Assembly (NCBI RefSeq): GCF_039541335.1
Contig: NZ_BAABGA010000029.1
Span: 211,215-275,214 of the forward strand
DNA length: 64,000 nucleotides
Source of the DNA: Novipirellula rosea
GTDB taxonomy: Bacteria; Planctomycetota; Planctomycetia; Pirellulales; Pirellulaceae
Direction: 5' to 3'
Position numbers and translations under genes: made by a program. Position 1 is the first letter of the stretch, and each line of letters starts with the position of its first letter. This document shows positions 34,020 through 58,630 of the stretch, piece by piece. The notes under the pieces were generated by a model. That model did not search any database. It saw nothing but the letters and a program-made list of their open reading frames with translations, and was not told the DNA's origin.

Positions 34020-34081
34020 ACAAAAATTGGCTCGTGGGACCGATGACAGGCTGGAAACCAATCCCACACTGAAAATTGATT

Positions 34082-40734: not shown

Positions 40735-40789
40735 TCGCCTTTGAGGCCACGCTGTGAAGTATTTTCCCCTCTAGGGGTTGTGCATTTTT

Positions 40790-40865
40790 TGCGTAGCGGA
40801 AGTCGTCAAGACTTTCGATCCACGGCAAGTGCCTGCCGAAACTCTTGACGAGTTCCGCTGCGAAA
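40790..40865. repeat. REP-like palindromic element (family copy 2; arms GTAGCGGAAGTCGTCAAGACTTTCG / CGAAACTCTTGACGAGTTCCGCTGC)
   Basis: Two ~25-nt arms that are reverse complements of each other (2 mismatches), separated by ~24 nt. Confidence 0.6.
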
Positions 40866-40926
40866 TGCTTCACAGTGTTGAGGGCGAGACTTTCAATTTT
40901 CACCCCTTAGTACGCCAAAGCGACGG

Positions 40927-41517
40927 ATGCAGTATCGAGCTTGTCATTGCTGTGGATTGATTCATCGATTGCCTCCGCTGCAGGCGGGTGACCGCGCCCA
41001 GTGCACGCGATGCAAATCGATCCTGGCGGACACCACGCCATCGCACCAAAGTGCTAGCCGAACGGCGGCCGCCTCGGTTGCCGCGTTTATCCTGTTTTGG
41101 CCTGCCGTGCTGCTGCCGATCCTCGAGATCGAGCGTTTGGGGCAACGCAATGAACAGAGCATCCTGAGCGGCATTCTTGATCTGTTTCATCACGGCAACT
41201 ATTTCGTCGGTGGCGTGGTGCTGTTGTTTTCGATCCTCTTTCCGCTGACCAAAATCGTGCTGCTGGTTGAACTCAGCTGGCTCGAAGTGTTACAGCGACA
41301 ACACAAGGCGTTTACGCTGCGATTGATGGAACATGTGGGTAAGTGGAGCATGATGGACGTGATGCTGCTGGCATTTCTGGTGATGATGGTCAAGCTTGGC
41401 AACCTCGTGCATTTTCAATTTGGCCCCGCGGTGGTTGCGTTCACATTGTGTGTCGCGATGAGCATGATCGCGTCGTTGTCGTTTGATCCCCATTCGATTT
41501 GGGAAGAAGCAGAATGA
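40927..41517 (+). CDS. pqiA: Paraquat-inducible protein A family membrane protein
   Basis: N-terminal zinc-ribbon-like CHCCGLIH...CTRC followed by a PqiA TM topology. Overlaps pqiB by 19 bp. Confidence 0.75.
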   Translation: MQYRACHCCGLIHRLPPLQAGDRAQCTRCKSILADTTPSHQSASRTAAASVAAFILFWPAVLLPILEIERLGQRNEQSILSGILDLFHHGNYFVGGVVLLFSILFPLTKIVLLVELSWLEVLQRQHKAFTLRLMEHVGKWSMMDVMLLAFLVMMVKLGNLVHFQFGPAVVAFTLCVAMSMIASLSFDPHSIWEEAE

Positions 41518-43013
41518 GTGATCACGATCAAAGCGACTCGGACTTTCCCATTGCGGAAATTGCCCAACCCCGTCCGACGTGGTTCCGCCGTCACTCGCCA
41601 ATGTGGTTGTTGACGCTGGTCTGCTTGGGAATCGCAATTGGATTGACTTGGTATTCGTCCGACGCACCCGGAACGCAAATCGTTTTGCATTTTGATGATG
41701 GTCATGGTTTGAAACCCGGCGACCCGATTCGTCATCGCGGGATTCAAATTGGGATGGTTGAAAGCGTTTCCCTTCGCCAAGATCTCAACGGGATTGATGT
41801 CACAGCGACCTTGGATGAAGCGTCCTCGGCGATCGCGTGTGAAGGATCTCGATTTTGGATTGTTCGCCCTGAAGTCGCCATCACGGGCGTCAGCGGACTG
41901 GAGACTGCGGTGGGGTCAAAGTACATCGCGGTGATCCCGGGCAATCCCGCACAGAAACAATTTGAGTTTACCGGGCTCAATTCAAAACCGCCCGACGATT
42001 TAGGCCGCGGCGGAATTGAGCTCGTTTTGCGAGGCGACGATCGCTGGGGCGTCTACCCGGGATCGCCGCTGACATGGCGAGGGATCGAGGTTGGGCAAGT
42101 GCTCTCGAGTAGTCTGGCGCCCGATGCGATGCATGTCGATATCCGCGTGCGAGTGGACCAGCGGCACACCCGATTGCTATCTCGCAATTCAAAATTCTGG
42201 GTGACCAGCGGCGTGCAAATGGGGCTAGACGTGACCGGGTTCGAATTCTCGGCCGAGTCGTTGACGACGATTGCGCGAGGCGGCATCGCCTTGATGACTC
42301 CCGGCACCGCCGTTACTAAGACCGCTGCTACCGGCGACGATGTCCAGCCTGGCGACGTCTTTACGCTGCACCGCCGGCGTGACGACGCGTGGCTCGAATC
42401 CGCGATGCCGCTGAATCTGTTGTCTCATTCACCGCCGCCGATGGCAGCGGTGGTTGCGACGTGGAAGCAGACCTATTTTGGGATTACGCGGACGCGATCG
42501 GATCACGCTGCGTGTTTGGCCGTACCGCTTTCCGATCATGGCCAAGGCATCCTCGTTCCCTCGGATCTAATCGCGAACAAAGCGAACGCTGTCGAAGGCT
42601 CGTATCAATTGACGTACCGCGGGAATAATGCCGAGTCCGTTCTCGATGCTCCTGTCTCTCCCGAGTCGCCCGATGGCATCTCGGTGTTCCAGCTTGCAGA
42701 GAACGCGGTGTCATCGAAACAGGTCGTTGCGGCCGATCGAATGCGGATTCCGCAGGGGCCCGAAGACTGTTTTGCCGTCAGCCGGCGTTCTGGCGATGGT
42801 GAATCCGATGTTGTGATCGAAATGATCGGAGCCGAGCAATTAACGGTTAGCGGGGCCCGTTGGAATTGTAGCGAGGCGAGGTTCAGCCGTGAGGTTTGGC
42901 ATGGCGCTGCGGTGATTTCCAGTCGCGACGAAAAAGTGATCGGAGTGCTGTTGATCAACGAGAAAGGGGTGCAAATTGCGCCGCTTGCCAACCTGCCGAG
43001 CGGTACAGGATAG
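41499..43013 (+). CDS. pqiB: PqiB / MCE (MlaD-like) domain protein
   Basis: N-terminal TM and tandem MCE domains (GLKPGDPIRHRGIQIGMV, GSPLTWRGIEVGQV). Confidence 0.75.
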   Translation: MGRSRMSDHDQSDSDFPIAEIAQPRPTWFRRHSPMWLLTLVCLGIAIGLTWYSSDAPGTQIVLHFDDGHGLKPGDPIRHRGIQIGMVESVSLRQDLNGIDVTATLDEASSAIACEGSRFWIVRPEVAITGVSGLETAVGSKYIAVIPGNPAQKQFEFTGLNSKPPDDLGRGGIELVLRGDDRWGVYPGSPLTWRGIEVGQVLSSSLAPDAMHVDIRVRVDQRHTRLLSRNSKFWVTSGVQMGLDVTGFEFSAESLTTIARGGIALMTPGTAVTKTAATGDDVQPGDVFTLHRRRDDAWLESAMPLNLLSHSPPPMAAVVATWKQTYFGITRTRSDHAACLAVPLSDHGQGILVPSDLIANKANAVEGSYQLTYRGNNAESVLDAPVSPESPDGISVFQLAENAVSSKQVVAADRMRIPQGPEDCFAVSRRSGDGESDVVIEMIGAEQLTVSGARWNCSEARFSREVWHGAAVISSRDEKVIGVLLINEKGVQIAPLANLPSGTG

Positions 43014-43187
43014 CCCTCTCGCTAGCTTTGGAATTGTTGCAAAACTGGTTTGAACCACCTTCTGGTGCATCATTTCGGTGTGACTTAGGTGTATAAATAA
43101 CCTCTGTAATTCGCCTGTCAGGGCTCGCCAGCCGAGCGATCATGGCGACTTCGATCCCGAAACCTCTCATCGCAGAAGAGTTTTACC

Positions 43188-44477
43188 ATGACACTGTGGT
43201 CACGAAACAATGCACGTCAAGGATTGGCTCCGACAACTTGTCAACGAATGATTTGTAGATGGTCAAGATACGGAGTCGTGCTCGTCGCCTCCGCACTCGC
43301 TATCCCCATGACAGCGTCAACCAGCTTTGCCGATGACAAAGCGGACGCGGCAAGCGAGACCGATAAAACAGCGAAGGCAGCTGAGAAAGAAGAAAAGGAA
43401 GAAGTCAAACCGATCGAAGTTCCCGACGGGACGCCAGAAGAATTGTTTGTCTTTATCGACAAGGTCAAAGGCGAGCGTGGTCGCACACTGGAAACCGTAA
43501 TGCGATCAATGCAAGGCGTCTTTGATACGACCGAAAAAATTCGCGGCATCGAAGACCTCTCGCTCGAAGATGAACTCAAAGCAATCAACGAAGCGTTAGT
43601 GGCACAGGCGATGTTGGCACGTTTCTCGCCGGAGGCTCGAGATCGATTCGCCACCTACATCGAGGAGCTGGCGAAAGATCCTCGCGACGAAATTCAGCGA
43701 CTCGCCGCTGCGGAACAACTCAAGCAAGAAATCCAATCCGTTCGTACCGCGTCCGACGAGAAGAAACGCGAACTGGTTGACAAGGTGCTGGCGATCATTG
43801 ACGAAAACGGGATTGATCAAACGAATTACCGAATGGCATCGCAACTCGCATACGCGATTGGCTACGGTGACAACACGGAACTGGCGGCCTCGTTCTACGA
43901 TGCCCTTGCGTCGCGATTAGAAGAAGCCGAGGACGCCAAGCTGCGTGACGCAGCACCGCGAGCCGCGGGTGCTGCACGTCGTTTGCGTTTGCCCGGCAAC
44001 TTCTTTGAGCTCAGTGGAACAACCGCCGATGGAGAAACGTTCGATTGGAGTGCCTATCGTGGCAAAGTGGTGCTCGTCGATTATTGGGCCAGCTGGTGTG
44101 GGCCTTGTCGCGGTGAAGTTCCCAATATGAAAAAGAACCTCGAGAAATATGGCGATGCTGGGTTTGCCATCGTGGGGATCAACATGGACAGCACCTCCGA
44201 AGCGTACGAGTCGTACGTTGAAAAAGAAGAGATCCCTTGGGTGAACGTGGTCAACTTTGAACCCGAGAGCAAGGGATGGCAGCATCCGATGGCGGTTCAC
44301 TATGGCGTCTCGGGAATTCCCACCGCGATTCTGGTCAACGGCGAAGGGAAAGTCATCTCGCTGAGTGCTCGCGGCAAAACGCTCGACAAACTGCTAGCCG
44401 AGACACTGGGCGAACCTGAAGATGACGCCGAAGCGGCGGACAAAGAAGGTGATACGAAGGACGACGCGGCAGAATAA
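43188..44477 (+). CDS. TlpA/ResA-like thiol:disulfide oxidoreductase with long helical N-terminal region
   Basis: VLVDYWASWCGPCRGEVP thioredoxin CxxC motif, signal/TM at the N-terminus. Confidence 0.8.
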   Translation: MTLWSRNNARQGLAPTTCQRMICRWSRYGVVLVASALAIPMTASTSFADDKADAASETDKTAKAAEKEEKEEVKPIEVPDGTPEELFVFIDKVKGERGRTLETVMRSMQGVFDTTEKIRGIEDLSLEDELKAINEALVAQAMLARFSPEARDRFATYIEELAKDPRDEIQRLAAAEQLKQEIQSVRTASDEKKRELVDKVLAIIDENGIDQTNYRMASQLAYAIGYGDNTELAASFYDALASRLEEAEDAKLRDAAPRAAGAARRLRLPGNFFELSGTTADGETFDWSAYRGKVVLVDYWASWCGPCRGEVPNMKKNLEKYGDAGFAIVGINMDSTSEAYESYVEKEEIPWVNVVNFEPESKGWQHPMAVHYGVSGIPTAILVNGEGKVISLSARGKTLDKLLAETLGEPEDDAEAADKEGDTKDDAAE

Positions 44478-44678
44478 CGCGTCAATCGATCACAACATGG
44501 TTGCCCCCAAGCCGTGTCGCGGGGGGTGGCGGAATTCGCTACAACATGATTCCTTCGTTGGACAGATCCCTTCGCTATTCCCCCCCCGTAGCCAAACGGT
44601 CTGTCGATTGCCCTAAGGCCGGAACCGTCTTCTGATTTCCGCTGGGCTTTTACCAGCGGCATCGGAACAGGTCAGGTT

Positions 44679-46364
44679 ATGGGCGATTTTCATTTACACA
44701 TCACGAGCACGTTAGGGCTGTTGCTGGGCGTCAGTTTGGCTGCGGGCGTGTTCGCCGATGTGTTCCATCTGCCCAAAGTCACCGCCTATCTTTTGGTCGG
44801 CCTGCTGGTTGGCCCCAGCGTTCTGGACTGGATTCCCGAAGTCCATGTCGACGGGCTCGAGCCGGTGCTCGAGTTTGCGATGGCCATCGTGCTGTTTAAT
44901 CTGGGGTGCGAGTTTACATTCTCGAAGGTGCGGCGAATCGCCGCTCACTGTCTGGCGTTATCAGCAGCCGAAATCCTGTTGACTTGCGGGTTGGTGACCC
45001 TCGGGCTGAAACTATTTGGCTATGGCAGCAGCACCGCAATCTTGCTGGGATGCTTGGCCGTCGCCACGGCACCGGCGACGACCATCTTGGTGCTGAAAGA
45101 ATTTCGCTCCGAAGGCCCGGTCACTGAGAGCACCGGTTTTCTGGTCGCGGTCAACAATTTTGCCTGCATCGTGTTGTTCGAGTTTGCCTTTCTCGTGATC
45201 CATCTGTTCCAAGGAAAATTGGAGGTCACGATCACCAGCGAACTGCAGTGGCTGATCTCGAATCTGGGGACTGCGTTTGCCTTGGGGGTCGCGGGCGGCT
45301 TGATCATTAGCTACGGATGCGGGCTGTTGAAGTTCAGCCGCTGGTTGGTGTTGCTGATGGCGACCACCACGTTTCTGCTAGGCGCATGCGATTCGCTGCA
45401 CCTGCCCTACATGGTCACGTTTTTGGTGATGGGCGTGACGGTCGCCAACACGTCGGACATGAAAAACAAGATCGTCGGCGAACTCGACCACTTGTCTGGA
45501 CTACTGGCGGTCGTTTTCTTTGCCGTCCACGGAACCCACTTGGACGCCAATGCGTTTATCGCTGCCGGAGGGATCGGAGCTCTCTATATTGTTCTTCGTA
45601 TCGCCGGAAAATGGTTAGGCGTCTATGCTGCCGCACGACTGACGCGGCAGCCGCTCGAAGTGCGTCATTGGCTAGGAACATGCTTGTTCGCGCAAGCCGG
45701 CGCCGCGATTGCGTTATCCACGATTGCCGCGAACCGCGATCCCGAATTAGGCAAACCGATACAAGACATCATCCTCGGATCGGTGGTGGTGTTCGAGATC
45801 ATCGGACCGCTGTTTATCCGCCAATCGTTGTTGCGGACCGGCGAAGTCCCGTTGGCTCAAGCGATCAATCACTCCAGCCGAACGCCGCTGGAACAAGTGC
45901 GTGCGGTGGTCGACCGATTTCGTGCCGCGATTCGTCATGATGCACCCGAACGCACGGTCGCCAGCAAAGTCAAAGTCAGCGACTTGTTACGCAAGACGAA
46001 TGGTATTCATCAATCGGCAAATTTTGATGAGGTCATCGCGCATATCGAACACAGCCACGATAACACCTATCCGGTGGTCGATGAGCGAAAACGCGTAGTC
46101 GGAGTCATTCGCTATCCGCTGCTCAGTAACGTGATGTTTGACGAGAGCGTTACGACGTTGATTCGAGCCGAGGATTTGGCGAGTGAGACGGAATCATTTC
46201 TTTACCCCGACGAACCCGCGCAGCGTGCTTTTGAATTGTTCGAAGCCGAAACCGACGACTGTATTCCGGTCGTCGGTCGAGCGGAACCGAATGAGCTAGC
46301 CGGCGTCGTGCGTCGCAGCGACATCATGCACGCGCTGATCACTCAGCATCGCAAAACGAAATAG
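44679..46364 (+). CDS. Cation:proton antiporter (CPA1 Na+/H+ exchanger) with C-terminal CBS pair
   Basis: About 12 TM helices, then CBS-like segments (VIAHIEHSHDNTYPVVDERKRVVGVIRY). Confidence 0.75.
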   Translation: MGDFHLHITSTLGLLLGVSLAAGVFADVFHLPKVTAYLLVGLLVGPSVLDWIPEVHVDGLEPVLEFAMAIVLFNLGCEFTFSKVRRIAAHCLALSAAEILLTCGLVTLGLKLFGYGSSTAILLGCLAVATAPATTILVLKEFRSEGPVTESTGFLVAVNNFACIVLFEFAFLVIHLFQGKLEVTITSELQWLISNLGTAFALGVAGGLIISYGCGLLKFSRWLVLLMATTTFLLGACDSLHLPYMVTFLVMGVTVANTSDMKNKIVGELDHLSGLLAVVFFAVHGTHLDANAFIAAGGIGALYIVLRIAGKWLGVYAAARLTRQPLEVRHWLGTCLFAQAGAAIALSTIAANRDPELGKPIQDIILGSVVVFEIIGPLFIRQSLLRTGEVPLAQAINHSSRTPLEQVRAVVDRFRAAIRHDAPERTVASKVKVSDLLRKTNGIHQSANFDEVIAHIEHSHDNTYPVVDERKRVVGVIRYPLLSNVMFDESVTTLIRAEDLASETESFLYPDEPAQRAFELFEAETDDCIPVVGRAEPNELAGVVRRSDIMHALITQHRKTK

Positions 46365-46381
46365 ACGATTCGTTTGGTTTG

Positions 46382-46807
46382 TTACGAGAACATGCGACGA
46401 CGAACCATGGCGATCGTGGCAAGTTGATCGGGTTTGAGTGTCATGGTTTGTTTTGCTGTTGCCAACGCCGAATCAAAATGATGATCAGCCAAAAACAACA
46501 TCGCTGGCTGCTGTAGCGATGCTTCATCCGCAATTGCCTGCAGCAACTTGCAGCCTTTGCCATTGATCCGGTGGGCGTAACACAGATCGCTGAACAGCGA
46601 AACCGAGGAATGGGCATTGCGTGCGACGCGACGTTGAATTTGCCAGGCAACCAGCGACGAAACAATCACGATCGCAGCGGTGATCAACATCCACAGCGAC
46701 GAATCGCTTGTTGCGGTCGCCGTTTCTTTGTAATGCAGGTTGACGTCACTCATCCGAGTTTCAGCGAACAACAGGAAGGACGTTAAATTGGCCATGTCGA
46801 AAATCAA
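46382..46807 (-). CDS. Hypothetical single-TM protein
   Basis: 141 aa with one TM (LWMLITAAIVIVSSLVAW). Confidence 0.3.
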   Translation of the reverse strand: MIFDMANLTSFLLFAETRMSDVNLHYKETATATSDSSLWMLITAAIVIVSSLVAWQIQRRVARNAHSSVSLFSDLCYAHRINGKGCKLLQAIADEASLQQPAMLFLADHHFDSALATAKQTMTLKPDQLATIAMVRRRMFS

Positions 46808-46874
46808 AATAACAATGTGAAAGGATGTTTGTAGAAGCAGACGTTAAATAATGAGAGGCAAATCGCTCCTGGCG

Positions 46875-48416
46875 TTAGAACGTTTTCATTGCTTCTCGAT
46901 ATCGGATCGCCTTGATCGCTGCGTCACTCACCGGGCAGGGGGGCAATGCAGACATTTCTTTTAACAGCGATAGCGTGCTGTTGCTTTCGGCTCGTGACAT
47001 GACTTGGCATGCGAGCACACGTGCTTCCTGGTGGTCTTCGCGAGAGATCCGCTCGAACGAATCGCTCAGCAAATCGACGGCGGCCAAGGCGTCCGCTGCG
47101 GCAATTGCATCCATCCGTTTGTTTAGCACTGGATGACGGAGCCCGTCGCGTATCCGTGCGATCGCTTCGGTATCGATCGTCATCACCACACGTCCCAACG
47201 CGCGTCGATGCTTCTCGGGCATGTCCGACAATCGGTGCAACATCGCGTCGGCGTGTAGCGGGCTGAGGATGCGGCGAACCGAACGAACCAGCGAAGCGTC
47301 TTGATGATCAAGCAATTGAATCAAATGATCAAGCAGCAACGCGACTGAATCCGCAGCAATCGCGTCTTGATTCCCGCTGGCGATCAACAACGCCGCTTGA
47401 TGCCAAATTTCGAAACTAGGTATGCTGCATTTCATCATCCCGGCAACTGCCGCAGGAATGCATCCATGACCATCACGATGAATGGCCGCTACGATCGTGC
47501 GGAGATACACCAGGGGGTCGCCACCCGATTGACTGTAAACATGAATCGCAGCAGCACGATGATTCGCACTGATCGCGTCCATTAGTGAGTCATCGTCCGC
47601 ACAACACTTGGGCATCCCAAGTTCTTGCAGATTCTTTAACACGGTGGGTGAGGGTTCTTCGCCAATCGCACGCAACAGCGAATCACGAAACACGTCGTCC
47701 GTGCGGCTGGCCAAAATTTCGAGCAGGAACGAGGGCACGTTGCGGCGACAAATAAACCCAGCCAACAGTTCGACCATTCCAGCACGCTGGGTGGTCAGCA
47801 ATCGATTGCCGATCATTTTGCAATATTCGGAGCTGGATGATGTGAATTGTCGCAATTCAGCATCGGCCCAAGTCGAATTGACCAAAAAGGCATCAATCAA
47901 TTGCTCGTTTTTATGTTTGTGGATCCGCTGGACCGATTCCGAAAGCGCGGCAACCACGGGAGTGCGAACCGACGGTTTGTCTCGATTGGCGCGTGCCTCG
48001 TGCCCGAGTTCATGAGCCAACTGTAGAATCGCATCGGTCGCGGCTTCACGGATGGTTTCGGATGAATGCGATTCTGCAATTGGAATCAAATCGACCAACA
48101 ACGGGTACAACCCGATCATCACCGACGCGTTGATCGCGTGCGAAAGGTTGTCGTCTTGGTTTTGCAGCGATTTCTGGACGGCTGGCGTGATCCAAGCTTT
48201 CCGCTTGCGAAGTTGGCCAAACAAATCGGGTGGAAAGATATCCCATCGCGACAGCACCGCTTCAGCGCAATGCGGCTCGCTTCGCTGCAACAACGACTCG
48301 ACGGAATGCGACCGTACCATTTCGCTGCTGTCTTCGAGCGCGATCAAAAGCAAATCCACCGCAGCAGCATTGCGGGACTCGGCGAGCGTTGCGAAAGTGA
48401 GTGAAGGACCTTGCAT
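46875..48416 (-). CDS. HEAT/ARM-repeat protein
   Basis: Repetitive ~40-aa helical repeats (AVDLLLIALEDSSEMVRSHSVESL and similar), 513 aa. Confidence 0.5.
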   Translation of the reverse strand: MQGPSLTFATLAESRNAAAVDLLLIALEDSSEMVRSHSVESLLQRSEPHCAEAVLSRWDIFPPDLFGQLRKRKAWITPAVQKSLQNQDDNLSHAINASVMIGLYPLLVDLIPIAESHSSETIREAATDAILQLAHELGHEARANRDKPSVRTPVVAALSESVQRIHKHKNEQLIDAFLVNSTWADAELRQFTSSSSEYCKMIGNRLLTTQRAGMVELLAGFICRRNVPSFLLEILASRTDDVFRDSLLRAIGEEPSPTVLKNLQELGMPKCCADDDSLMDAISANHRAAAIHVYSQSGGDPLVYLRTIVAAIHRDGHGCIPAAVAGMMKCSIPSFEIWHQAALLIASGNQDAIAADSVALLLDHLIQLLDHQDASLVRSVRRILSPLHADAMLHRLSDMPEKHRRALGRVVMTIDTEAIARIRDGLRHPVLNKRMDAIAAADALAAVDLLSDSFERISREDHQEARVLACQVMSRAESNSTLSLLKEMSALPPCPVSDAAIKAIRYREAMKTF

Positions 48417-48788
48417 TCTTCTTCAAATGACAATGTTGGGGGTCTCGATATCAATCCGACGTGCCAAGAAGGACATTCACCATCATGTCGTCAGGCAACC
48501 GTAGCTTGATGAAGTGCATGAAATCGCATTGCCAGCAGAAAATGTGTTGCTCAGGCAACGTGAATCGACACCGCAAACGTCACAAACGGAATAACCGAGT
48601 CGATCGGCACCTATTTGTGGGGTGAGACCACCCGCGCATGCGACATGCCGTCGGCTTTTTGTCGGATTCGATTCCACGGGCGTATGCTCTATAATCACGG
48701 TGAGGCACCGGGGATCGCGGCGGCCTCGCACCCGCGATGGAAACCACCCTCTTGGGTATCAACAACGAACCTACAACCCTTTGTTAAT

Positions 48789-49061
48789 CCAATGAATCAA
48801 CGCCCCGCAAACATTGTTCTCGAGGAATCCTTTTTGGATGTTCGAGCGAAGGTGCTCGAAATCGCCGCGGTACTCGATCGCGTCGATCGGTCGCTGCAAG
48901 ACGGCACGCCGCTGGACGAAGACATCAGCGTGCGACGCGATAAGATTCATGATGCGATTCGATTGCTGCTGAGCGAAGAACCCGATCGTGCCGAACGGGT
49001 GCAATTGCTATTCTCGCGAAAATATTCCCCCGCTTGGCGGTCGGAATTAAAAGTCGATTGA
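48789..49061 (+). CDS. Small hypothetical protein
   Basis: Internal Met of track ORF 48615-49061. About 90 aa, charged, helical. Confidence 0.3.
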   Translation, partial: PMNQRPANIVLEESFLDVRAKVLEIAAVLDRVDRSLQDGTPLDEDISVRRDKIHDAIRLLLSEEPDRAERVQLLFSRKYSPAWRSELKVD

Positions 49062-49160
49062 TTTGGCCCTAAGGAAGACGTTCCCGTTGGCCGCGGGGAA
49101 CCGTTTGCGAATCACCATCCTCTATCACTCCCACACCATTTGACCTCGAGCTAATTTGCC

Positions 49161-49979
49161 ATGGACTACATCGACCCCCACATTCACATGGTGTCTCGGA
49201 CCACCGACGACTACGCGACGCTGGCGCGGATGGGATGCGTGGCGATGAGTGAGCCGGCTTTCTGGGCTGGCTACGACCGAGGCAGTGTCGATGGGTTCCG
49301 CGATTACTTTCGCCAACTCACCGAAACCGAACCCAAACGCGCGGCCGCGTATGGGATCCAACATTTCACTTGGCTGTGCATCAACGCCAAAGAAGCCGAA
49401 AATGTTTCGCTGTCGCGCGATGTGATTGCGATGATCCCCGAATTCCTCGAAGCCGCCAACGTGCTCGGAATCGGCGAGATCGGGCTGAACAAGAACACTC
49501 GCAACGAATCGATCATCTTCCTCGAACATCTCGAATTGGCGATCAAACATAACCAATCGATCTTGATTCACACGCCGCATTTGGAAGATAAATTCCAAGG
49601 CACGCGGATGATTCTGGATATGTTGTCCGATGATCAGCGACTCGACCGCACTCGCGTCCTTGTCGATCATGTCGAAGAGCATACGATTGCCGAAGTACTG
49701 GATCGAGGTTTTTGGGCAGGCATGACGCTGTATCCGGTCACAAAATGTACGCCGGAACGAGCGGCGGACATGATTGAAATGACCGGAGGTGAACGGTTGC
49801 TCGTGAATTCGGCGGGCGATTGGGGGCCGAGTAAACCGACTGCGGTTCCCGATTTGATCTTTGAATTACGTCGACGCGGTCATCGTGAATCACTGATCAA
49901 AAAAGTGGTTTATGACAACCCGATTGAGTTCTTCTCGCAAAGTTCTAACTTCAAATTCAAACCACGCGACGTCTCCTAG
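49161..49979 (+). CDS. TatD-related metal-dependent hydrolase
   Basis: MDYIDPHIHMVSRT HxH metal-binding N-terminus and later motifs (ILIHTP, LVDHVEEH) of the TatD/amidohydrolase fold. Confidence 0.6.
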   Translation: MDYIDPHIHMVSRTTDDYATLARMGCVAMSEPAFWAGYDRGSVDGFRDYFRQLTETEPKRAAAYGIQHFTWLCINAKEAENVSLSRDVIAMIPEFLEAANVLGIGEIGLNKNTRNESIIFLEHLELAIKHNQSILIHTPHLEDKFQGTRMILDMLSDDQRLDRTRVLVDHVEEHTIAEVLDRGFWAGMTLYPVTKCTPERAADMIEMTGGERLLVNSAGDWGPSKPTAVPDLIFELRRRGHRESLIKKVVYDNPIEFFSQSSNFKFKPRDVS

Positions 49980-50280
49980 ACGTAGGAGACTGCTGATTTA
50001 GTTGGGCGTTTTGGCGTGAGTCACAGTTTCGTCGCCACTGAACCAGGGCTAGTGCCCAAGCGGCTAACAGGTTTTCACCCATTGATTCCTGCTGACCTGC
50101 TTCGTAGCGGCACGGTGCGGGTCCCGTTCGGTTGCAGCGAGTTAAACGTTCGGTTGAATTAGCGAGCCTTGATGCGTAGCGGCGGAGGTTTTGCGCACGA
50201 CCTCATTTGCATACGCCTTACGGCGGATCCTTTGCGTTTAAAACATTCACTAGATCAACTCTTCGCCAAGATGGCAAACC

Positions 50281-52497
50281 TTGATGAGTTCCGCATCCCT
50301 AAGTAGCGCCGCGTCAAAACAGCGAAGTGGACATGGATTCGGAACCATCGCAGGGGTTTTTACGCCCTGCATGTTGACGATTCTTGGCGTCATCATGTTT
50401 TTGCGGTTTGGGTTTGTGGTTGGCCAAGCCGGGATTATCGGCACCATGGCGATCGTGTTGTTCAGCAACGCGATCACATTGTTAACCACGCTCTCGTTGT
50501 CCGCGATCGCCACCAACACCAAAGTCGAAGGGGGCGGTGCGTACTTTTTAATCAGCCGCAGTTTGGGCGCAGAATTTGGCGGCGCGATCGGACTCGTCTT
50601 CTTCGCCGCTCAAGCGCTATCGGTGGCAATGTATGTGATCGGGTTTACCGAAGCATTGGTCGGCTATCTGCCCGACGGAACGTCGCCCACGTTAGTCGCA
50701 TCGCTTACCAATATCGCGGTATTTGGCTGTGTGGCCATCGGCGCCGCGTGGACGATGAAGCTGCAGTTTCTGATTCTGGCGGCGGTGCTGTTTGCCCTGT
50801 TTTCGTTTTACGCTGGAGCTTGGACGCAGTTTGACGCAGGCATTTTCCTGCAAAATACGGGCAGCGGGTTCAGTGGCGGTGAGTCGTTTTGGACTGTGTT
50901 CGCGTTGTTCTTTCCCGCCGTGACGGGGATCATGGCGGGAGCAAACATGTCGGGCGATCTCCGTAACCCTGCTCGCTCGATTCCCTTGGGGACTCTCGCT
51001 GCGGTCTTTGTTACCGGGCTGATCTACATTTCCGAAGCGATTCTGATCGGAGGATGTCGTGACCGCGAAACCTTGATCACCAACAACTTGGTGCTCTCGG
51101 ATATTGCGGTGATGCCTGCGTTGATCGCTGCGGGGGTGTTCGCCGCAACGATCTCTTCGGCGCTGGGCAGCATGATGGGAGCACCGCGGATTCTGCAGTC
51201 CCTGGCCCGCGACCGGTTGTTCCGTTGGCTCCAACCACTGGGGATCGGGTCGGGTGCCAATTCGGAACCACGACGCGCCATCTTTGTGACGTTTTTGATC
51301 TCGCAAGCCGGCATCCTGCTTGCCGACCTCAACACGATTGCACCGCTGATCACGATGGCATTTTTGGTGACCTATGGGCTGCTGAATCTCGCCACCTTCT
51401 ATGAATCGATCACCAAAAACCCTAGCTACCGTCCTCGATTCAAATTTTGCCACTGGACCACGTCGCTCGCGGGTGCGATCGGATGCGGGATCGTCATGCT
51501 GTTGATCGATTGGCAATGGGCGTTTGTAGCGATTTCGCTGTTCGCCGCTTTGCATTGGTATTTGTCAAAAATCGATCTCTCCGCCGATTTCGGTAACGTC
51601 ACCAGCGGTTTGCTGTTCGAGCGAACACGCAAAAATTTGTTAAAACTCGAAGGCGAGCTTTATCATCCCAAAAATTGGCGACCGTTTGTATTGGCGCTCA
51701 GCGGCACCGGTTTTTCGCGTCCTCATCTGGTGGTCTTTGGACATTGGTTGACGTCACGCACGGGCATTTTGACGCTTGGGCAAGTCATCCAAGGCGAATT
51801 GGATGATCGCCATCGGCGTCGAATCTCGCAAGAAAGAATGCTGCACGCGATGATTGGCGAGCACGGGCTGAACGCGTTTCCCGCCGTGGTGGTCGCCAGC
51901 GACTATGTGACCGGCGTCGAAGCACTGGTGCAGTGCCAAGGGTTAGGCCGACTGCGTCCCAACGCCGTGCTGCTTGGTTGCCCACTTTCGGTCGACCGCA
52001 TGAAGATTTTCGGTGGCCTGCTTCGAAACTTGCGAGGACTATCACGCAGTGCCGTCGTGCTCCGCCGCACGGATGAACCCGCCGACGATTGGAAACCCCC
52101 AAGCGGCACTGTGGACGTTTGGTGGCGCGGACGTGCCAATGGCGAATTGATGGTGCTGTTGGCACACCTGCTATTGCAGAACGAAGATTGGCGAGGACGT
52201 GAGTTGCGACTCTTGCGGGTCGTGGACAACGAAGCCGGAATCGACGAAGTGCGAAATCACCTGAATGGACTATTAAAGGCAGCCAGAATTCCTGGCGTTA
52301 CCAAAGTTGTCGTCTCGAAAGATCCTGAATTAGCAATCCAGACGACAAGCCGTAACGCCGCGATGGTATTCCTGGGCATGCAACCACCCAACATCGGCGA
52401 CGAAGAGGCGTTCTTCTATCGCACTGAAAAGTTGGCGGGCGGTCTATCGCGAGTCGTCTTTGTCCAAAGCGCAGGCGGGATGCGACTCGAGTCCTGA
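50281..52497 (+). CDS. SLC12-like cation-chloride cotransporter / amino-acid-permease-family transporter with cytoplasmic C-terminal domain
   Basis: 12-TM APC-fold N-terminal 450 aa (GTIAGVFTPCMLTILGVIMFLRFG) plus a ~280-aa soluble C-terminal domain. Confidence 0.75.
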   Translation: MMSSASLSSAASKQRSGHGFGTIAGVFTPCMLTILGVIMFLRFGFVVGQAGIIGTMAIVLFSNAITLLTTLSLSAIATNTKVEGGGAYFLISRSLGAEFGGAIGLVFFAAQALSVAMYVIGFTEALVGYLPDGTSPTLVASLTNIAVFGCVAIGAAWTMKLQFLILAAVLFALFSFYAGAWTQFDAGIFLQNTGSGFSGGESFWTVFALFFPAVTGIMAGANMSGDLRNPARSIPLGTLAAVFVTGLIYISEAILIGGCRDRETLITNNLVLSDIAVMPALIAAGVFAATISSALGSMMGAPRILQSLARDRLFRWLQPLGIGSGANSEPRRAIFVTFLISQAGILLADLNTIAPLITMAFLVTYGLLNLATFYESITKNPSYRPRFKFCHWTTSLAGAIGCGIVMLLIDWQWAFVAISLFAALHWYLSKIDLSADFGNVTSGLLFERTRKNLLKLEGELYHPKNWRPFVLALSGTGFSRPHLVVFGHWLTSRTGILTLGQVIQGELDDRHRRRISQERMLHAMIGEHGLNAFPAVVVASDYVTGVEALVQCQGLGRLRPNAVLLGCPLSVDRMKIFGGLLRNLRGLSRSAVVLRRTDEPADDWKPPSGTVDVWWRGRANGELMVLLAHLLLQNEDWRGRELRLLRVVDNEAGIDEVRNHLNGLLKAARIPGVTKVVVSKDPELAIQTTSRNAAMVFLGMQPPNIGDEEAFFYRTEKLAGGLSRVVFVQSAGGMRLES

Positions 52498-52769
52498 GCA
52501 GGGTCCTCAATCACAATCTTACTCGTCATTGGATTGGCCCATTTTTTCGTTTGCCCCCTATTTGTGGGCTGGTGATGCTTGCTGTGGAGGCACATGGAGA
52601 GGGTTGGCCGTCGTAAGCTGGTCGCAATGCGGGTATAAAATCCATTGTGTGGTGAAATTGCGGTGCCGATTCCATTACACTGTGCGTTTGCAAACGCGTT
52701 TGTAAGCATCAAGATTGGGCCTTCGCGTTCGATCGATTCCCCCCCTTTTTCCTGATTGGCTTTCCCTCC

Positions 52770-54728
52770 ATGACCAAATCTCCCTCAGGGCAAATTGACC
52801 ACGTTCTGACCGAAGATCGTTTGTTCCCGCCCCCCGCCGAATTTACTCAGAAGGCCGTTTTTTCGACGACGGACCAGTATCAGGAGATGTACAAGCGTGC
52901 GGCTGAAAATCCGGATGACTTTTGGCGTGAAGAAGCGCTCGAGCATCTGCATTGGTTCGAGCCGTTCGGCGAAGTGTGCAAGTGGAATCCGCCTCACGCC
53001 GAGTGGTTTGTTGGTGGAAAAACCAACGCCAGCTACAACTGTTTAGATCGACACATCGACGCCGGCCGAGGCGATCGCGCGGCCATCATTTGGGAAGGCG
53101 AACCGGGCGATACGCGGACGCTAAGCTACAGTGAACTTCGCCGCGAAGTTTGCAAATGCGCCGAAGGGCTAAAACAGCTCGGCGTGGGTGCAGGCGACGT
53201 GGTCAGTATCTACATGCCAATGACGCCCGAGCTTGCGATCTCGATGTTGGCTTGTGCCCGCATTGGTGCAGTCCACTCGGTTATCTTTGCGGGCTTTAGT
53301 GCCGAGTCGATTGTTGATCGGAACAACGACGCCGGTGCGAAATTGATGATCACCGCGGACGGGCTGTACCGCCGAGGCAAGATTTTGCCGCTCAAGAAAA
53401 CGGTAGACGAAGCGCTCGAAAAATCGCCCACCGTCAAACACTGTTTGGTGCTAAAACGTACCGGCCAAGACGATGTCGCGATGACCGACGGACGCGATGT
53501 GTGGTGGCACGATGTGGTCGATACACAGCCCGGTGAAATCGCTGCCCAGCCGATGGACAGCGAAGCATCGTTATTCATTCTGTATACCTCCGGCAGCACC
53601 GGGAAACCCAAGGGAATTCGGCACACCACCGCGGGCTACAATCTGTGGGCCAAACGAACGTTCCAGTGGGTGTTTGATCATCGCGAGGACGATGTCTATT
53701 GGTGCACCGCCGATTGTGGCTGGATCACCGGGCACACCTATATCGTCTATGGTCCGTTGTCCGCAGGGGCAACCTGTTTGATGTATGAAGGCGCGCCAAA
53801 CTTTCCCGCCGAAGATCGTTTTTGGGAGCTGATCGAGAAGTACAAAGTAACGATTTTGTACACCGCTCCGACCGCAATCCGTGCGTTCATCAAATGGGGC
53901 GACGAGCATGTCGACAAGCATGATCTATCGAGTTTGCGATTGCTGGGAAGCGTGGGTGAAGGGATCAATCCCGAAGCTTGGATGTGGTACCACAAAAAGA
54001 TTGGCGGCGAGCGTTGCCCGATCGTCGATACGTGGTGGCAAACCGAAACAGGCGGCATCATGATGAGTCCGCTGCCGGGGATCACCGCAACCAAACCAGG
54101 CTCCTGCACCACTCCGCTGCCGGGCGTTGTGCCAGCGATCGTGGACGAAACCGGAAACGAAGTCGACGATCACCACGGCGGTATGTTGTGTATCGCCAAA
54201 CCGTGGCCGGGCATGCTGCGAGGCATCTGGGGTGACGAAGATCGTTATGCCGAACAATATTGGTCGATGGTTCCCGGAAAATATCTCACCGGCGATAACG
54301 CGCGTCGAGACAAAGATGGCTACTACTGGATCATGGGCCGCATCGATGATGTGATCAATGTCTCAGGACACCGGCTCAGCACGATCGAAGTCGAAAGTGC
54401 ACTGGTCAGCCACGATGCGGTCTGTGAGGCGGCGGTCGTGGGACGGCCCGATGAAATCAAGGGGCAAGCCATCGCGGCATTTGTCACGATCCGTGATCGC
54501 GAACCCGACGAGGCGTTGCGGACAGAGCTGAAGCAGCATGTGCGGAAGCAGATCGGAGCACTCGCGCAACCCGATGATCTGCGGTTCACTGCATCGCTGC
54601 CGAAAACACGAAGCGGCAAGATCATGCGGCGCTTGCTGCGAGATATCGCGTCGGGCAACGAGATCGGCGGCGATACGTCGACCCTCGAAGATTTCTCGGT
54701 ATTGGCCAAGATCCGCGACGACGAATAG
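52770..54728 (+). CDS. acs: Acetyl-CoA synthetase (acetate--CoA ligase)
   Basis: [14 protein letters not shown]-binding motif, WWQTETGG, and characteristic ACS N- and C-termini. 652 aa. Confidence 0.95.
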
Positions 54729-54750
54729 GCACCCCCGAGCGACATTTCCA

Positions 54751-54780
54751 GTAGCGAAACTCGCCAAGAGTTTCGCATGC
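54751..54780. repeat. REP-like palindromic element (family copy 3, collapsed)
   Basis: GTAGCGAAACTCGCCAAGAGTTTCGCATGC, an 8-bp stem around a CGCCAAG loop, immediately after the acs stop. Confidence 0.55.
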
Positions 54781-54815
54781 TGGGATGGTGTTGACGAACG
54801 TCTTCGCGACATTCG

Positions 54816-55301
54816 CTACGCGGTATAACGCGTCACGGCCGATTCGGGATACCCGTCGTAGAAACGGCGGATCCAGTGTCGGCCGGACCACTGTTGTAGA
54901 TGCCGCTGCCATCCGTTTCGCTCGAGCAAGCGGTCGCTGATCGCACCGTTAGTGACATGCGCGACGATTGCGGCAGCGTTGCGAATACGGGCAATTTCCT
55001 CGAGCACACGGATGGCACCGATAAAGGTTTTGTAACCTGCCTGATGGCCCGAGCGAATGTAGTCGAGCGTCAAGAAGCCAGGCATGCCAAACGGTTGATG
55101 GTAATCCAGCCAACAGACGTCGTCGTTCATTCGCCCATATTTCGATTGCCACCACACCTGGGCTACCGACACGCTGCCCGCGACGAGCCGCCGCTGGACT
55201 TTGACAAACCGGCCACCTTGCATCACGATTCGGCCACACCGCCACGAACGCAGTTGAGCTTGGCCATCGCGAATGTCGGTGATGAAACTCGGTCCAAACA
55301 T
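54816..55301 (-). CDS. Hypothetical protein (161 aa)
   Basis: ORF with ordinary composition and no domain I can name. Bracketed by REP-like copies 3 and 4. Confidence 0.4.
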   Translation of the reverse strand: MFGPSFITDIRDGQAQLRSWRCGRIVMQGGRFVKVQRRLVAGSVSVAQVWWQSKYGRMNDDVCWLDYHQPFGMPGFLTLDYIRSGHQAGYKTFIGAIRVLEEIARIRNAAAIVAHVTNGAISDRLLERNGWQRHLQQWSGRHWIRRFYDGYPESAVTRYTA

Positions 55302-55339
55302 GATCCTGTTCTCGTTTGTTGGTCCGATGCGATTCGGGT

Positions 55340-55408
55340 GTAGCGAAAGTCGCCAAGACTTTTGGGGGGTGACGGCGTTGACCGAAACTCACGCGCGAGT
55401 TTCGCTAC
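55340..55408. repeat. REP-like palindromic element (family copy 4; GTAGCGAAAGTCGCCAAGACTTTTGG ... CGAAACTCACGCGCGAGTTTCGCTAC)
   Basis: Two hairpin arms in inverted orientation with terminal GTAGCG/CGCTAC. Confidence 0.6.
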
Positions 55409-55455
55409 CTTGAAGTTGATAACCACTGATGACAGGCTAGCAGCCTATCCCACGG

Positions 55456-56235
55456 TTAGGCGGCGGCTTGTTGTCCGTTTGCGATCGGCAAGCGAATCAC
55501 AAATGCGGTGCCGCGACCGACGGTGCTTTCCACTCGGATGCGACCTTTGTGGGTGTCGATGATTTCTTTGCAGGCGGCCAATCCCAAGCCAGTGCCCCCT
55601 TTTCCTGATTCGTCGGGACCCGCCTTCGTGGTAAAGAAGGAGTCAAAAATGCGAGGTAATTCGGACTTGGGGATTCCGCAACCACTGTCGCGAATCATCA
55701 GCTCCACCCACTCGTCCTGTGCCGAGCGCGTGAGCTTGACAAGGATGGTGCCCCCTTCGGGCATCGATTGTCGTGCATTGATCAGCAGGTTCAACAAGAC
55801 GCGTTGGATCTGATTGCCGCTGGCGAATGCTTTCGGAGTCGAGGCATCGATTTCGGTTTCGATGCTGATGCGGTACTTTCGCATCTCACGCTCCAATAGC
55901 ACCAATGAATCGTTGATGATGCTGGCCAAATCAGTCGGCTCCATCGATTCACTGCGATTGCGAGCTTGGGCCAAAATCGTGTTGGTGATCTTGGCGGCTC
56001 GTTCGGACGCTTCAAGGATTTTGCTGAGCGCCTTGTCGCGGCTGGCGTCATCACGATTGCGAATTCCCAGCTTCGAATAATTGATCACGGTCATCAACAC
56101 GTTGTTGAATTCATGAGTCGCGGTACTCATCAATTCCCCCAACGAAGCGAGGCTTTGCAGTTTCCGCATTTCCGCACGAAGGTATTGGATTTCCGCTTGC
56201 GCGTCGTTGCGAGATGGCAGAGGAGATGATGACAT
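55456..56235 (-). CDS. Cytoplasmic sensor histidine kinase (HisKA + HATPase_c)
   Basis: H-box ELMSTATHEFNN, N/G1/G2 boxes (LLNLLINARQS, DSGCGI, GGTGLGL). No TM segments or response regulator adjacent. Confidence 0.85.
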   Translation of the reverse strand: MSSSPLPSRNDAQAEIQYLRAEMRKLQSLASLGELMSTATHEFNNVLMTVINYSKLGIRNRDDASRDKALSKILEASERAAKITNTILAQARNRSESMEPTDLASIINDSLVLLEREMRKYRISIETEIDASTPKAFASGNQIQRVLLNLLINARQSMPEGGTILVKLTRSAQDEWVELMIRDSGCGIPKSELPRIFDSFFTTKAGPDESGKGGTGLGLAACKEIIDTHKGRIRVESTVGRGTAFVIRLPIANGQQAAA

Positions 56236-56512
56236 AGTGATACGGTTTCATGCGAGCGAATGCGGCCGGTTTATCGACACAGTCGCTGCGGTGGATCAGG
56301 TGGCACTGATGCCAATGCGACTGTAAATGATCTATCGTCGAAGCCCGTCGATCCGCTACACCTCGTATGATCGTACCTGCATAGTTTGCCACGCTAGCCG
56401 AGTCGATCGGTGTCCCCTGGGCTGCGAAAGGATTCCGACTAGGCAAACTGTTTTCATTAGCCCGCTATTTTTGTCACGCCACTTTAGTTTTGCCCCGCCA
56501 TTTTTTTACTGT

Positions 56513-56803
56513 GTGATGGATCGACCGATGCGGAATCAAGCAAGTGATTCAAAAATTGCTGACGAAAACGTGGTTCAGCGACTGCGTCGTCGCACTCAAC
56601 AAGCTCGCGACTTGGGATTTCATGTCCGCACCGAATTGCTTGATGGGCAAGAACCGTCGTGGTGCATGATCGGCAAGCGAAAAACGATCTTTATCGATCT
56701 CGCCCAAACCGCGGCCGAGCAGCTTCGCCAACTCGAAGAATCGATGTCCGAGTACCAGCAGCGTTTGCGGAAATCACGCGAATCGATGAATCCAGCAGCC
56801 TGA
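56513..56803 (+). CDS. Small hypothetical protein
   Basis: About 96 aa from an internal Met of track ORF 56327-56803. Charged, helical. Confidence 0.25.
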   Translation: MMDRPMRNQASDSKIADENVVQRLRRRTQQARDLGFHVRTELLDGQEPSWCMIGKRKTIFIDLAQTAAEQLRQLEESMSEYQQRLRKSRESMNPAA

Positions 56804-56971
56804 GTGGCGGCGGTTTCTGATTCGGCGTCACCCCAAAAAAACGACTCTTTTTTCGCTGTCAGCGGCCGAAATAGCGTCGCTGGCTACTTTTCAGCCTCGT
56901 GACACGGCACAATAGGCAGATCATCATCTGGTTCTGTTGACTCGCTGTGATTTTTTTGAGGCCGTTGTCCT

Positions 56972-57994: not shown

Positions 57995-58137
57995 GGGAGA
58001 GGGCCCGGCCGGATCAATTTGCCCCAAGCGATGCGGATCCGGGATGCAGATCCGGCAGGATTCGTAAGTGATGGCGAGCTCATCACTGAGCCGCCATGCC
58101 GGAACTTCGCTCCGCTGCGAGTTACCGAAGGCCGATC

Positions 58138-58530: not shown

Positions 58531-58630
58531 AATCGGTAAATCGAATGAGTTGTGTGTGTCGTCAAGCCGAGGCCCCGTTCGATACGTTCGCCAATGCGAT
58601 GACGTGGGGCCGCAAAAACCAATGAATGCG

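Follow-up and report, generated by a model that had tools for sequence, protein, structure and literature searches.

Short palindromes recur between the genes of a 64,000-nt stretch of the Novipirellula rosea genome (GCF_039541335.1, NZ_BAABGA010000029.1, positions 211,215-275,214; hereafter the window, to whose positions all coordinates refer), raising the question of what kind of element they represent and which enzyme, if any, disperses them. A first-pass annotation had described them as a dispersed, REP-like palindromic family, and this description holds: the repeats carry a GTAG tag and an 8-bp compensated stem, form head-to-head dimers, sit beside unrelated genes, lack target-site duplications and flank a clade of RAYT genes. 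We consider it very probable that the window repeats are GTAG-tagged REPs paired head-to-head as REPINs, with a dedicated RAYT that is flanked by the same unit in related genomes.

Four repeat doublets in the window

A covariance model trained on units from other genomes and then run on the window yielded seven significant units (E 9e-9 to 3e-5), all of which fall within four elements, E1 to E4 (Table 1). The matches exceed chance in shuffled-sequence controls as well: the 23-nt unit pattern, allowing ≤3 mismatches, was matched six times against 0.00 expected (100 shuffles), and the strict hairpin pattern twice against none expected. The four copies reported earlier are all present and intergenic, but the third ends at 54819 rather than at 54780, its second unit (54795-54819, minus strand) having been missed. 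Similarly, the copies do consist of hairpins, but instead of "one or two" each comprises a head-to-head doublet of two units. A possible fifth copy at ~1376-1410, also intergenic, scores 8.6-8.7 bits with the covariance model (E ~5), which is chance level.

Table 1 Repeat elements of the window, their units and the genes next to E1
Feature	Positions	Strand	Evidence or remark
E1, decayed REP doublet	24639-24708	.	sequence, covariance model
E1 left unit, degenerate	24639-24663	+	not significant alone (covariance model)
E1 right unit, GCAGCGAAACTTGCCAAGAGTTCCG	24684-24708	-	31.8 bits, E 1.2e-5
DUF3686/AAA gene, neighbour of E1	24728-29986	-	stop side towards E1
Sulfatase gene, other neighbour of E1	22292-24655	-	
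E2, heterotypic head-to-head doublet	40793-40861	.	spacer 19 nt
E2 G-type unit	40793-40817	+	44.3 bits
E2 C-type unit	40837-40861	-	40.3 bits
E2 composite form	40748-40882	.	folding z -7.5
E3, heterotypic doublet	54751-54819	.	sequence, covariance model
E3 C-type unit	54751-54775	+	44.6 bits
E3 G-type unit, diverged	54795-54819	-	30.2 bits
E4, heterotypic doublet	55340-55408	.	sequence, covariance model
E4 G-type unit	55340-55364	+	40.4 bits
E4 C-type unit, 6-nt loop GCGCGT	55383-55408	-	31.5 bits

Both units of E2 carry the G7/T14 variant, and the doublet folds with z-scores of -6.3 as DNA and -7.8 as RNA. It is embedded in a composite, in which an outer imperfect inverted repeat, CACGCTGTGAAGTATTTT ... 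AAATGCTTCACAGTGTTG, has the doublet and a variable piece of 25 nt between its arms. Composites of this type are also found at four non-orthologous sites (L001, L058, L101 and L112) with unshared flanking genes, and the 131-nt megablast matches of the E2 composite stop at the limits of the element.

As noted previously, the third and fourth copies bracket a small gene, the 161-aa ORF 54816-55301 (minus strand), whose stop codon is the TAG of the right-hand GTAG of E3. The antisense ORFs 40679-40903, 54622-54912 and 55223-55426 are indeed spurious, their LDDFRY, LGEFRY and LGDFRY peptides being the translated unit. The visible effects of the repeats in the window are intergenic padding, a stop codon for ORF 54816-55301 and spurious antisense ORFs. 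BIMEs of Escherichia coli bind IHF or gyrase, and a putative host-level effect of the window copies, for example, mRNA 3′-end stabilization or protein binding, is possible.

A compensated hairpin structured on its GTAG strand

The 25-nt unit consists of a 5′-GTAG followed by an 8-bp stem, CGRAASTC/GASTTTCG, and a 5-nt loop, GYCAA. Stems are either G-type (AAGTC/GACTT) or C-type (AACTC/GAGTT). Across 237 units, GTAG is kept in ~95%; pair 10:20 is G-C in 137 units, C-G in 80 and unpaired in ~20, and pair 11:19 is T-A in 217 and C-G in 10. In a set of 50 distinct units, double changes affect five of the eight stem pairs, and the observed values were reached in none of 500 shuffles; this set was selected by hand, which inflates the percentage paired. 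Wobble pairs read on the GTAG strand are strongly asymmetric, with 154 G:T against 19 A:C, from which it follows that each unit is structured on its own GTAG strand and that, within a doublet, the left and right units take up their structure on opposite strands. This strand specificity would fit recognition of single-stranded DNA by a RAYT.

Strong stem covariation, wobbles compatible with G-U pairing and a sequence conserved across genera would equally be expected of a structured non-coding RNA or a cis-regulatory RNA motif. Nevertheless, in a single transcript spanning a doublet, every G:U in one hairpin would be matched by an A:C mismatch in the other, the neighbouring genes are unrelated, orientation relative to them is unbiased, and the copies cluster around a transposase gene. 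Rfam provided no match either, for the whole window at gathering thresholds or for 54700-55480 at E≤1. We therefore regard an RNA motif as very improbable.

Doublets with conserved units and free spacers

Units are organized predominantly as head-to-head doublets (n = 79), mostly 64-70 nt long and with the GTAG ends facing outward; only eight pairs are arranged head-to-tail or tail-to-tail. The spacers measure 9-47 nt and their sequence is unconserved. Given that spacers are far less conserved than units, recent copying of whole doublets is insufficient alone, and selection or conversion acting on the units is implied. Furthermore, G-type and C-type units are combined more often than unit frequencies would predict, with 53 of the 68 clean doublets being heterotypic compared to ~46% expected.

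Dispersal without a preferred gene context

Among the matches listed, the unit occurs at more than 113 loci, several per genome, in Novipirellula, Stieleria, Rhodopirellula, Rubripirellula, Pirellula, Neorhodopirellula and metagenome-assembled genomes (MAGs). The window has one copy per 16 kb; at the other loci the figure is ~1 per 34 kb, and any number per genome is an extrapolation from such values. Nine of 66 doublets lie inside crude ORF calls. Clustering of ORFs within 1.5 kb of copies gave one family at nine loci, which matches the window sulfatase, and a second family at six loci. A gene-specific regulatory site was rejected, there being no recurrent neighbour beyond the abundant sulfatases and this one six-locus family.

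E. coli REPs stabilize upstream mRNA. A survey of GTAG REPs (PMC3733652) likewise puts forward mRNA stabilization by REPs as a hypothesis. The hairpins here are stable upon folding, and the elements lie nearer to stop codons than to start codons (median distances of 46 and 118 nt, respectively), all of which would suit intrinsic, possibly bidirectional terminators or mRNA 3′-end stabilizers maintained by the host rather than by transposition. However, a scan of 54000-56500 detected no terminator-like site and no T-run, and doublet flanks are T-rich on the 5′ side and A-rich on the 3′ side, the reverse of a terminator. Moreover, judged by the wobbles, the hairpins of a doublet form on different strands. 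The enrichment at convergent gene ends that the first-pass annotation had envisaged in connection with a terminator role did not materialize: with crude ORF-based gene calls, convergent contexts numbered 14, compared with 11.3 expected (p 0.29), and the split in orientation relative to transcription, 15 versus 12, was not significant. As the primary explanation, a host-maintained terminator or stabilizer is thus unlikely; as a secondary host effect, such a role is compatible with the REP explanation.

A Planctomycetes-specific RAYT clade flanked by the unit

The decisive result is the presence of exactly this 25-nt unit on the flanks of RAYT genes from a clade specific to Planctomycetes (RB11751-type). 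Such genes were found at eight loci: L198 (Novipirellula sp.), L199 (N. artificiosorum), L200 (Stieleria maiorica), L201 (Rhodopirellula sp. P2), L135, L141, L142 and L202. At L198 and L202 the neighbours of the RAYT gene encode a LysR-type regulator and a transaldolase, one on either side. The RAYT genes, too, have their stop codons in GTAG. Each of the seven RAYTs with ≥65% identity to the L135 protein is accompanied by this unit, whereas those below 61% have REPs with other stems and 4-nt loops; the REP type thus tracks RAYT relatedness, with stem sequence and loop length shifting stepwise along with RAYT identity. In Rhodopirellula sp. P2, two RAYT paralogues (L116 and L201) are each associated with a separate REP family.

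The flanked protein is, as modelled, a single-strand HUH/Y1 tyrosine transposase of the RAYT type. In the RB11751-type RAYT, neither the PDHxH sequence, with its HxH motif, nor the tyrosine within EYIARNPER varies. Searches with the AlphaFold model (pLDDT 93) retrieved 4ER8, "REP associated tyrosine transposase bound to a REP hairpin", as the best PDB match (E 3.8e-8, TM 0.60/0.71), followed by the TnpA proteins of IS608, ISDra2 and IS200. Because Pfam Y1_Tnp remains below threshold on the clade (E 0.005-0.04) and a sequence-based search of PDB with the RAYT profile returned only noise, the assignment rests on motifs and the predicted fold. Class 3 TnpA_Y1, which is enriched in Planctomycetes (Quentin et al. 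2018, PMC6006769), was considered and rejected: its motifs are NHVH and Y----Q and its foot CnGA, as opposed to PDHxH, YIARNP and GTAG here.

Searches of the window and of 782 kb surrounding 113 copies, by tblastn with the window RAYT and with an HMM of 120 homologues, revealed no cognate RAYT. The RAYT encoded in the window (30181-30639) was rejected as a partner, its REPs having a different sequence. The earlier statement that the present family is distinct from the RAYT-associated REPs at 30040-30960 is accordingly correct as regards sequence, but the family is itself RAYT-associated, through another clade that the window does not encode.

Possible mobility of the doublets

By analogy with E. 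coli TnpA_REP and the IS200/IS605 family, the RAYT would recognize the folded hairpin and its 5′ GTAG on single-stranded DNA, and would cleave and rejoin at this site. Doublets would thereby be copied or moved into new intergenic sites without duplicating the target.

A single polymorphic site bears on mobility. At the syntenic site of Novipirellula sp. SH528 (NZ_CP197418.1), in a locus 88-92% identical, E3 is missing, with ~91 nt lacking in the alignment, whereas E4 is kept at 90% identity including the element. The ~22 nt adjoining E3 differ too, indicating that the difference is not a clean insertion, and it could reflect a deletion in SH528. The suggestion that copies three and four flank a variable gene and mobilize it is contradicted by the same comparison: SH528 has the small gene with copy 4 only, and the bracket is therefore not a gene-mobilizing unit.

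This presence/absence difference could also be accommodated by MITEs whose terminal inverted repeats are the 25-nt units and whose movement depends on a DDE-type IS transposase. The units are indeed inverted repeats at the element ends, and left and right units agree at position 7 in 68 of 79 doublets and at position 14 in 66 of 79, as expected under whole-doublet copying. Yet target-site duplications are absent, the length distribution being that of a shuffled-partner control; internal sequence is unconserved; and the copies adjoin neither a DDE transposase nor any other recurrent gene. In addition, each supposed terminal repeat has a GTAG foot and folds into a compensated hairpin of its own, and the enzyme flanked by the units is a Y1/HUH RAYT rather than a DDE transposase. 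The MITE reading is largely refuted, and we assign it hardly any probability.

Within the REPIN explanation, G-type and C-type units could represent the functional left and right ends of a miniature IS200/IS605-like element, comparable to the LE and RE hairpins of IS608, in which case a heterotypic doublet would be an internally deleted REPtron and heterotypy would be needed for RAYT-mediated excision and integration. We put this forward tentatively and consider it less probable than not. It is favoured by the over-representation of heterotypic doublets, by a RAYT gene located between an upstream G-type and an inverted downstream C-type unit in Novipirellula sp. and in the MAG ERZ3422408, and by the doublets on either side of the RAYT at L135, L142 and L200, which share polarity relative to the gene. 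If it were true, the combination of near-invariant units across genera with free spacers would be a product of co-evolution with a vertically inherited RAYT.

Relation to known REP systems

A literature search with the unit sequence returned only chance primer matches. Nonetheless, Di Nocera et al. (2013; PMC3733652) describe GTAG REPs as head-to-head heterodimers with compensatory stem changes, G-T pairs and variable spacers, and report the families GTAG-20 to GTAG-22 and several RAYTs in Rhodopirellula baltica. The present family is a sibling of GTAG-21, associated with RB11751. GTAG-21 shares with our unit the GTAG foot, the 8-bp stem including a G:T wobble, the GCCA(A) loop, head-to-head dimers and a position flanking a RAYT from the same Planctomycetes-specific family. 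Its sequence was deduced from the peptides SRIRQEF and RILANPA, given in Additional file 3 of PMC3733652, and from L116 of Rhodopirellula sp. P2, where dimers of GTAGCCGGATTCGCCA(A)GAATTCGG flank the orthologue of RB11751 (94% identical). The stem differs, being CGRAASTC here and CCGRATTC in the deduced GTAG-21 sequence, and the cognate RAYT forms a separate clade, ~55% identical to the GTAG-21-associated RAYT. The GTAG-21-type and the present system coexist in one genome (L116 and L201). The present unit may conceivably be among those that the survey lists as GTAG-20 to GTAG-22.

As in the REPIN-RAYT systems of Pseudomonas fluorescens and Enterobacteria (Bertels and Rainey 2011, PMC3116915), two inverted REPs enclose a spacer, a RAYT is flanked by its own REP type, targets are not duplicated and the system persists for long within a bacterial family. 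In contrast to those REPINs, the doublets here are mostly heterotypic, differing by one compensated pair, their spacers are very variable, and the family extends across several genera with almost unchanged units. Compared to E. coli TnpA_REP (PDB 4ER8), the RAYT, of ~195 aa, is only 18% identical and lies under the Pfam Y1_Tnp cut-off. In E. coli BIMEs, as outlined in PMC3733652, two REP subtypes likewise alternate in inverted orientation and form heterodimers; however, the subtypes of these Y/Z mosaics differ by loop length, and those described here by a G-C/C-G swap in the stem.

Collectively, the repeats belong to an ordinary type of bacterial "junk" repeat and represent no new kind of biology; their importance lies mostly in annotation and housekeeping. 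The family explains the recurrent spurious ORFs with an LG(E/D)FRY motif, the altered gene ends, as in the stop codons of ORF 54816-55301 and of the RAYT genes, and the alignment breaks between close Pirellulaceae genomes. A widespread Pirellulaceae REP family is now paired with a Planctomycetes-specific RAYT clade that is missed by Pfam Y1_Tnp and mostly annotated as "hypothetical protein", providing a clean example of REP-RAYT co-divergence beyond Proteobacteria.

Four REP doublets in intergenic regions

All four copies announced by the first-pass annotation are present, each lying between genes, and share one architecture read directly in the sequence: two 25-nt units face each other head-to-head with their GTAG ends outward and 18-20 nt between them. 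The unit reads GTAG-CGRAASTC-GYCAA-GASTTTCG, with a four-base foot, an 8-bp stem and a 5-nt loop. Allowing up to three mismatches, this pattern has six matches in the window against 0.00 expected from shuffled sequences, and a covariance model built on units from other genomes finds seven significant units there (E 9e-9 to 3e-5), none outside E1-E4; the left unit of E1 has degenerated too far to be scored. For E3, the first unit had been recognized correctly, and the extent has to be enlarged by the overlooked partner unit at 54795-54819 on the minus strand. The suspected fifth copy near 1380 dissolves into noise (8.6 bits, E about 5). The antisense ORFs sharing an LG(E/D)FRY motif are spurious as proposed, the motif being the translated unit.

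Coordinates of repeats and associated features (the window is from Novipirellula rosea; L handles denote loci from other genomes and metagenomes)
Feature	Source	Position	Context
Doublet E1	window	24639-24708	between DUF3686/AAA gene and sulfatase gene
Doublet E2	window	40793-40861	between AhpC/TSA-domain gene and pqiA
Doublet E3	window	54751-54819	between convergent ends of acetyl-CoA synthetase gene and 161-aa ORF
Doublet E4	window	55340-55408	between 161-aa ORF and histidine kinase gene
161-aa ORF	window	54816-55301 (minus)	no Pfam match
REPtron of another type	window	30040-30960	complete
RAYT of that REPtron	window	30181-30639 (minus)	152 aa, IS200-like
145-nt duplication	window	30705-30920	within REPtron region
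Partner RAYT	L198, Novipirellula sp.		unit on both sides
Partner RAYT	L199, N. artificiosorum		unit on both sides
Partner RAYT	L200, S. maiorica		unit on both sides
Partner RAYT	L201, Rhodopirellula sp. P2		unit on both sides
Partner RAYT	L202, ERZ3422408 MAG		unit on both sides
RAYT stop within GTAG	L135	2043-2046	downstream unit
RAYT stop within GTAG	L141	2028-2031	downstream unit
RAYT stop within GTAG	L142	715-718	downstream unit
RAYT stop within GTAG	L200	2585-2588	downstream unit
Composite	window	40748-40882
Composite	L001	1004-1133
Composite	L058	about 6429-6555
Composite	L101	2680-2804
Composite	L112	122-248
Third palindrome	window	55425-55453, 33885-33909, 34039-34069
Third palindrome	L198	1759-1786
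Third palindrome	L202	1231-1257
Third palindrome	L040, Novipirellula sp. SH528	4440-4451
18-nt tandem arrays	window	20693-20793, 16516-16623	4-5 copies each

Distribution and genomic neighbourhood

A search for the exact pattern in one genome per species recovered at least 113 loci with the unit; the matches listed are throughout from Planctomycetota and nearly all from Pirellulaceae (Novipirellula, Stieleria, Rhodopirellula, Rubripirellula, Pirellula, Neorhodopirellula and many MAGs). Together with the window, the 113 loci listed hold 237 units and 79 head-to-head doublets, mostly of 64-70 nt. Units are nearly invariant across genera, and spacers are free in both sequence and length (9 to 47 nt). 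A perfect doublet also occurs at L012 1327-1392, on a contig whose bin is labelled 'Candidatus Kuenenia sp.'. This anammox planctomycete is distant from Pirellulaceae, and the find could reflect mis-binning or a wider distribution of the family.

Among the loci listed, genes beside the copies are unrelated, only sulfatases and one 6-locus family recurring, which rules out a gene-specific regulatory site. Doublets are closer to gene ends than to gene starts (median distance 46 nt from stop codons, 118 nt from start codons), a placement typical of REPs (PMC3733652). A terminator role, for which enrichment at convergent gene ends had been suggested as a check, is not supported: that enrichment is not significant, no terminator-like site was found at 54000-56500, and the sequence flanking the doublets is rich in T on the 5' side and in A on the 3' side, opposite to what a terminator would show. 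Nor do the doublets look like MITEs, no target-site duplication being found around them. A search of the whole window against Rfam at gathering thresholds gave no match, and orientation relative to flanking genes is unbiased (15 vs 12), giving no sign of an RNA function.

Stem compensation and doublet composition

Among the 237 units, stem pair 10:20 is G-C in 137 (G-type) and C-G in 80 (C-type), and pair 11:19 is T-A in 217 and C-G in 10; this tally is the unbiased count, because the hand-picked set of 50 distinct units, in which double changes occur at five of eight stem pairs with shuffled and slid controls nowhere near, favours pairing. Position 7 is A or G facing an invariant T. On the GTAG strand, G:T wobbles far outnumber A:C (154 vs 19), and each unit is therefore 'read' on the strand that bears its GTAG, so that opposite strands are used for the two units of a doublet. 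Such a pattern fits recognition of each unit as single-stranded DNA and does not fit one RNA spanning both hairpins. In 68 doublets, the 10:20 pair of each unit is cleanly G-C or C-G; 53 of these are heterotypic, against about 46% expected. Positions 7 and 14 are independent within a unit, yet the left and right halves agree in 68 and 66 of the 79 doublets, respectively, which suggests that doublets are passed on or copied as one piece. Conservation continues outside the unit: C precedes GTAG in 46 of 79 doublets and positions -4 to -6 are T-rich, mirrored at the other end (L001-L113 and window), which may represent a cleavage- or target-site preference.

Comparison with Novipirellula sp. SH528

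Locus L040, on the SH528 chromosome, aligns in synteny with window 52581-59891 (88-92% identity). It retains E4 at the identity level of the flanks and lacks E3 together with about 22 adjacent bases. In the alignment, the convergent genes at the E3 site have overlapping stop codons (CTAG) in SH528, and the 161-aa ORF of the window ends on the TAG of E3's GTAG; since E3 supplies this stop, the last residues and stop differ between the two genomes. From these two genomes, insertion of E3 in the lineage of the window would be the simpler reading. The ORF is likely a real gene, as its protein is 94% identical in SH528; its presence there also contradicts the idea that E3 and E4 mobilized the gene they bracket.

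The partner RAYT

None of the 113 loci listed has a RAYT near the unit copies. The supplement of Di Nocera et al. 2013 (PMC3733652) lists the R. baltica families GTAG-20, GTAG-21 and GTAG-22, and places the RAYT rba11751 next to an ORF with a GTAG-21 dimer. Querying with rba11751 yielded 863 proteins of about 190 aa, a family confined to Planctomycetes. Its orthologue in Rhodopirellula sp. P2 is flanked by dimers GTAGCCGGATTCGCCA(A)GAATTCGG, of the same design as the window unit with a different stem. R. baltica GTAG-21 is a sibling of the E1-E4 family. A profile of the family retrieved 80 metagenome loci, in three of which (L135, L141 and L142) the exact window unit flanks the RAYT. The L135 protein has homologues in Stieleria, Novipirellula, Rubripirellula and Rhodopirellula, all of them genera in which the repeat also occurs. 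When all 88 RAYT loci were ranked by identity to this protein, all RAYTs at least 65% identical had the 25-nt unit with its 5-nt loop, whereas all those below 61% had another stem, usually with a 4-nt loop; both systems coexist in Rhodopirellula sp. P2, where each RAYT has a REP of its own. At four loci, the stop codon of the RAYT is the TAG within the GTAG of the downstream unit, a sequence overlap that might exist by design or by descent.

The partner matches Pfam Y1_Tnp only below threshold (E 0.005-0.04), and a profile search of PDB sequences gave no match. Both PDHxH and the EYIARNPER tyrosine are invariant, and an AlphaFold model (26 sequences; mean pLDDT 93) has as its top PDB fold match the REP-associated tyrosine transposase of E. 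coli in complex with a REP hairpin (4ER8; E 3.8e-8, TM 0.60/0.71, rmsd 2.5 Å), followed by the IS608, ISDra2 and IS200 transposases.

Other repeats

The E1-E4 repeats are distinct, as first noted, from those of the REPtron in the window, which are of type GTAGGCCCAAAGGGCC. The RAYT of this REPtron (Y1_Tnp, E 3.5e-21) has the same sequence as a Novipirellula rosea protein (100% identity) and is bordered by short GTAG REPs (GTAGGCCCAAAGGGCC, GTAGTCCCAACGGGAC) and CCAGGGCGTTGCCCTGG palindromes. In a subfamily composite of ~135 nt, found at non-orthologous sites in different genomes, the REP doublet sits off-centre within an outer inverted repeat of ~19 bp (GCAACGCTGTGAAGCATTT ... AAATGCTTCACAGCGTTGC), with 25 nt of variable sequence on just one side and a very stable fold (z -7.5 as DNA, -8.8 as RNA). 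A third small palindrome, GTGGGATAGGCT(N3)AGCCTGTC, occurs ~20 nt beyond E4 and is also conserved in SH528. In two genomes resembling Novipirellula it directly precedes the G-type unit next to the cognate RAYT; it could represent a GTGG-footed REP that accompanies the family. The two tandem arrays, of GTCGGNTCAANCGAACGT and CCGAATCAACACGCAGCG, probably encode hexapeptide repeats within coding regions.

A REP/REPIN family with an identifiable RAYT

By analogy with E. coli TnpA_REP and the IS200/IS605 family, the RAYT would recognize the single-stranded hairpin and cleave at GTAG. Every trait seen is already described for GTAG REPs in PMC3733652 (GTAG foot, compensated stems, G-T pairs, head-to-head heterodimers, variable spacers, association with other small repeats and REPtrons); the family is nothing new in kind. 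The REP-like reading holds: with all observed features matching GTAG REPs and the unit flanking a RAYT in other genomes, E1-E4 belong to a genuine REP/REPIN family whose RAYT partner is identifiable in related genomes.
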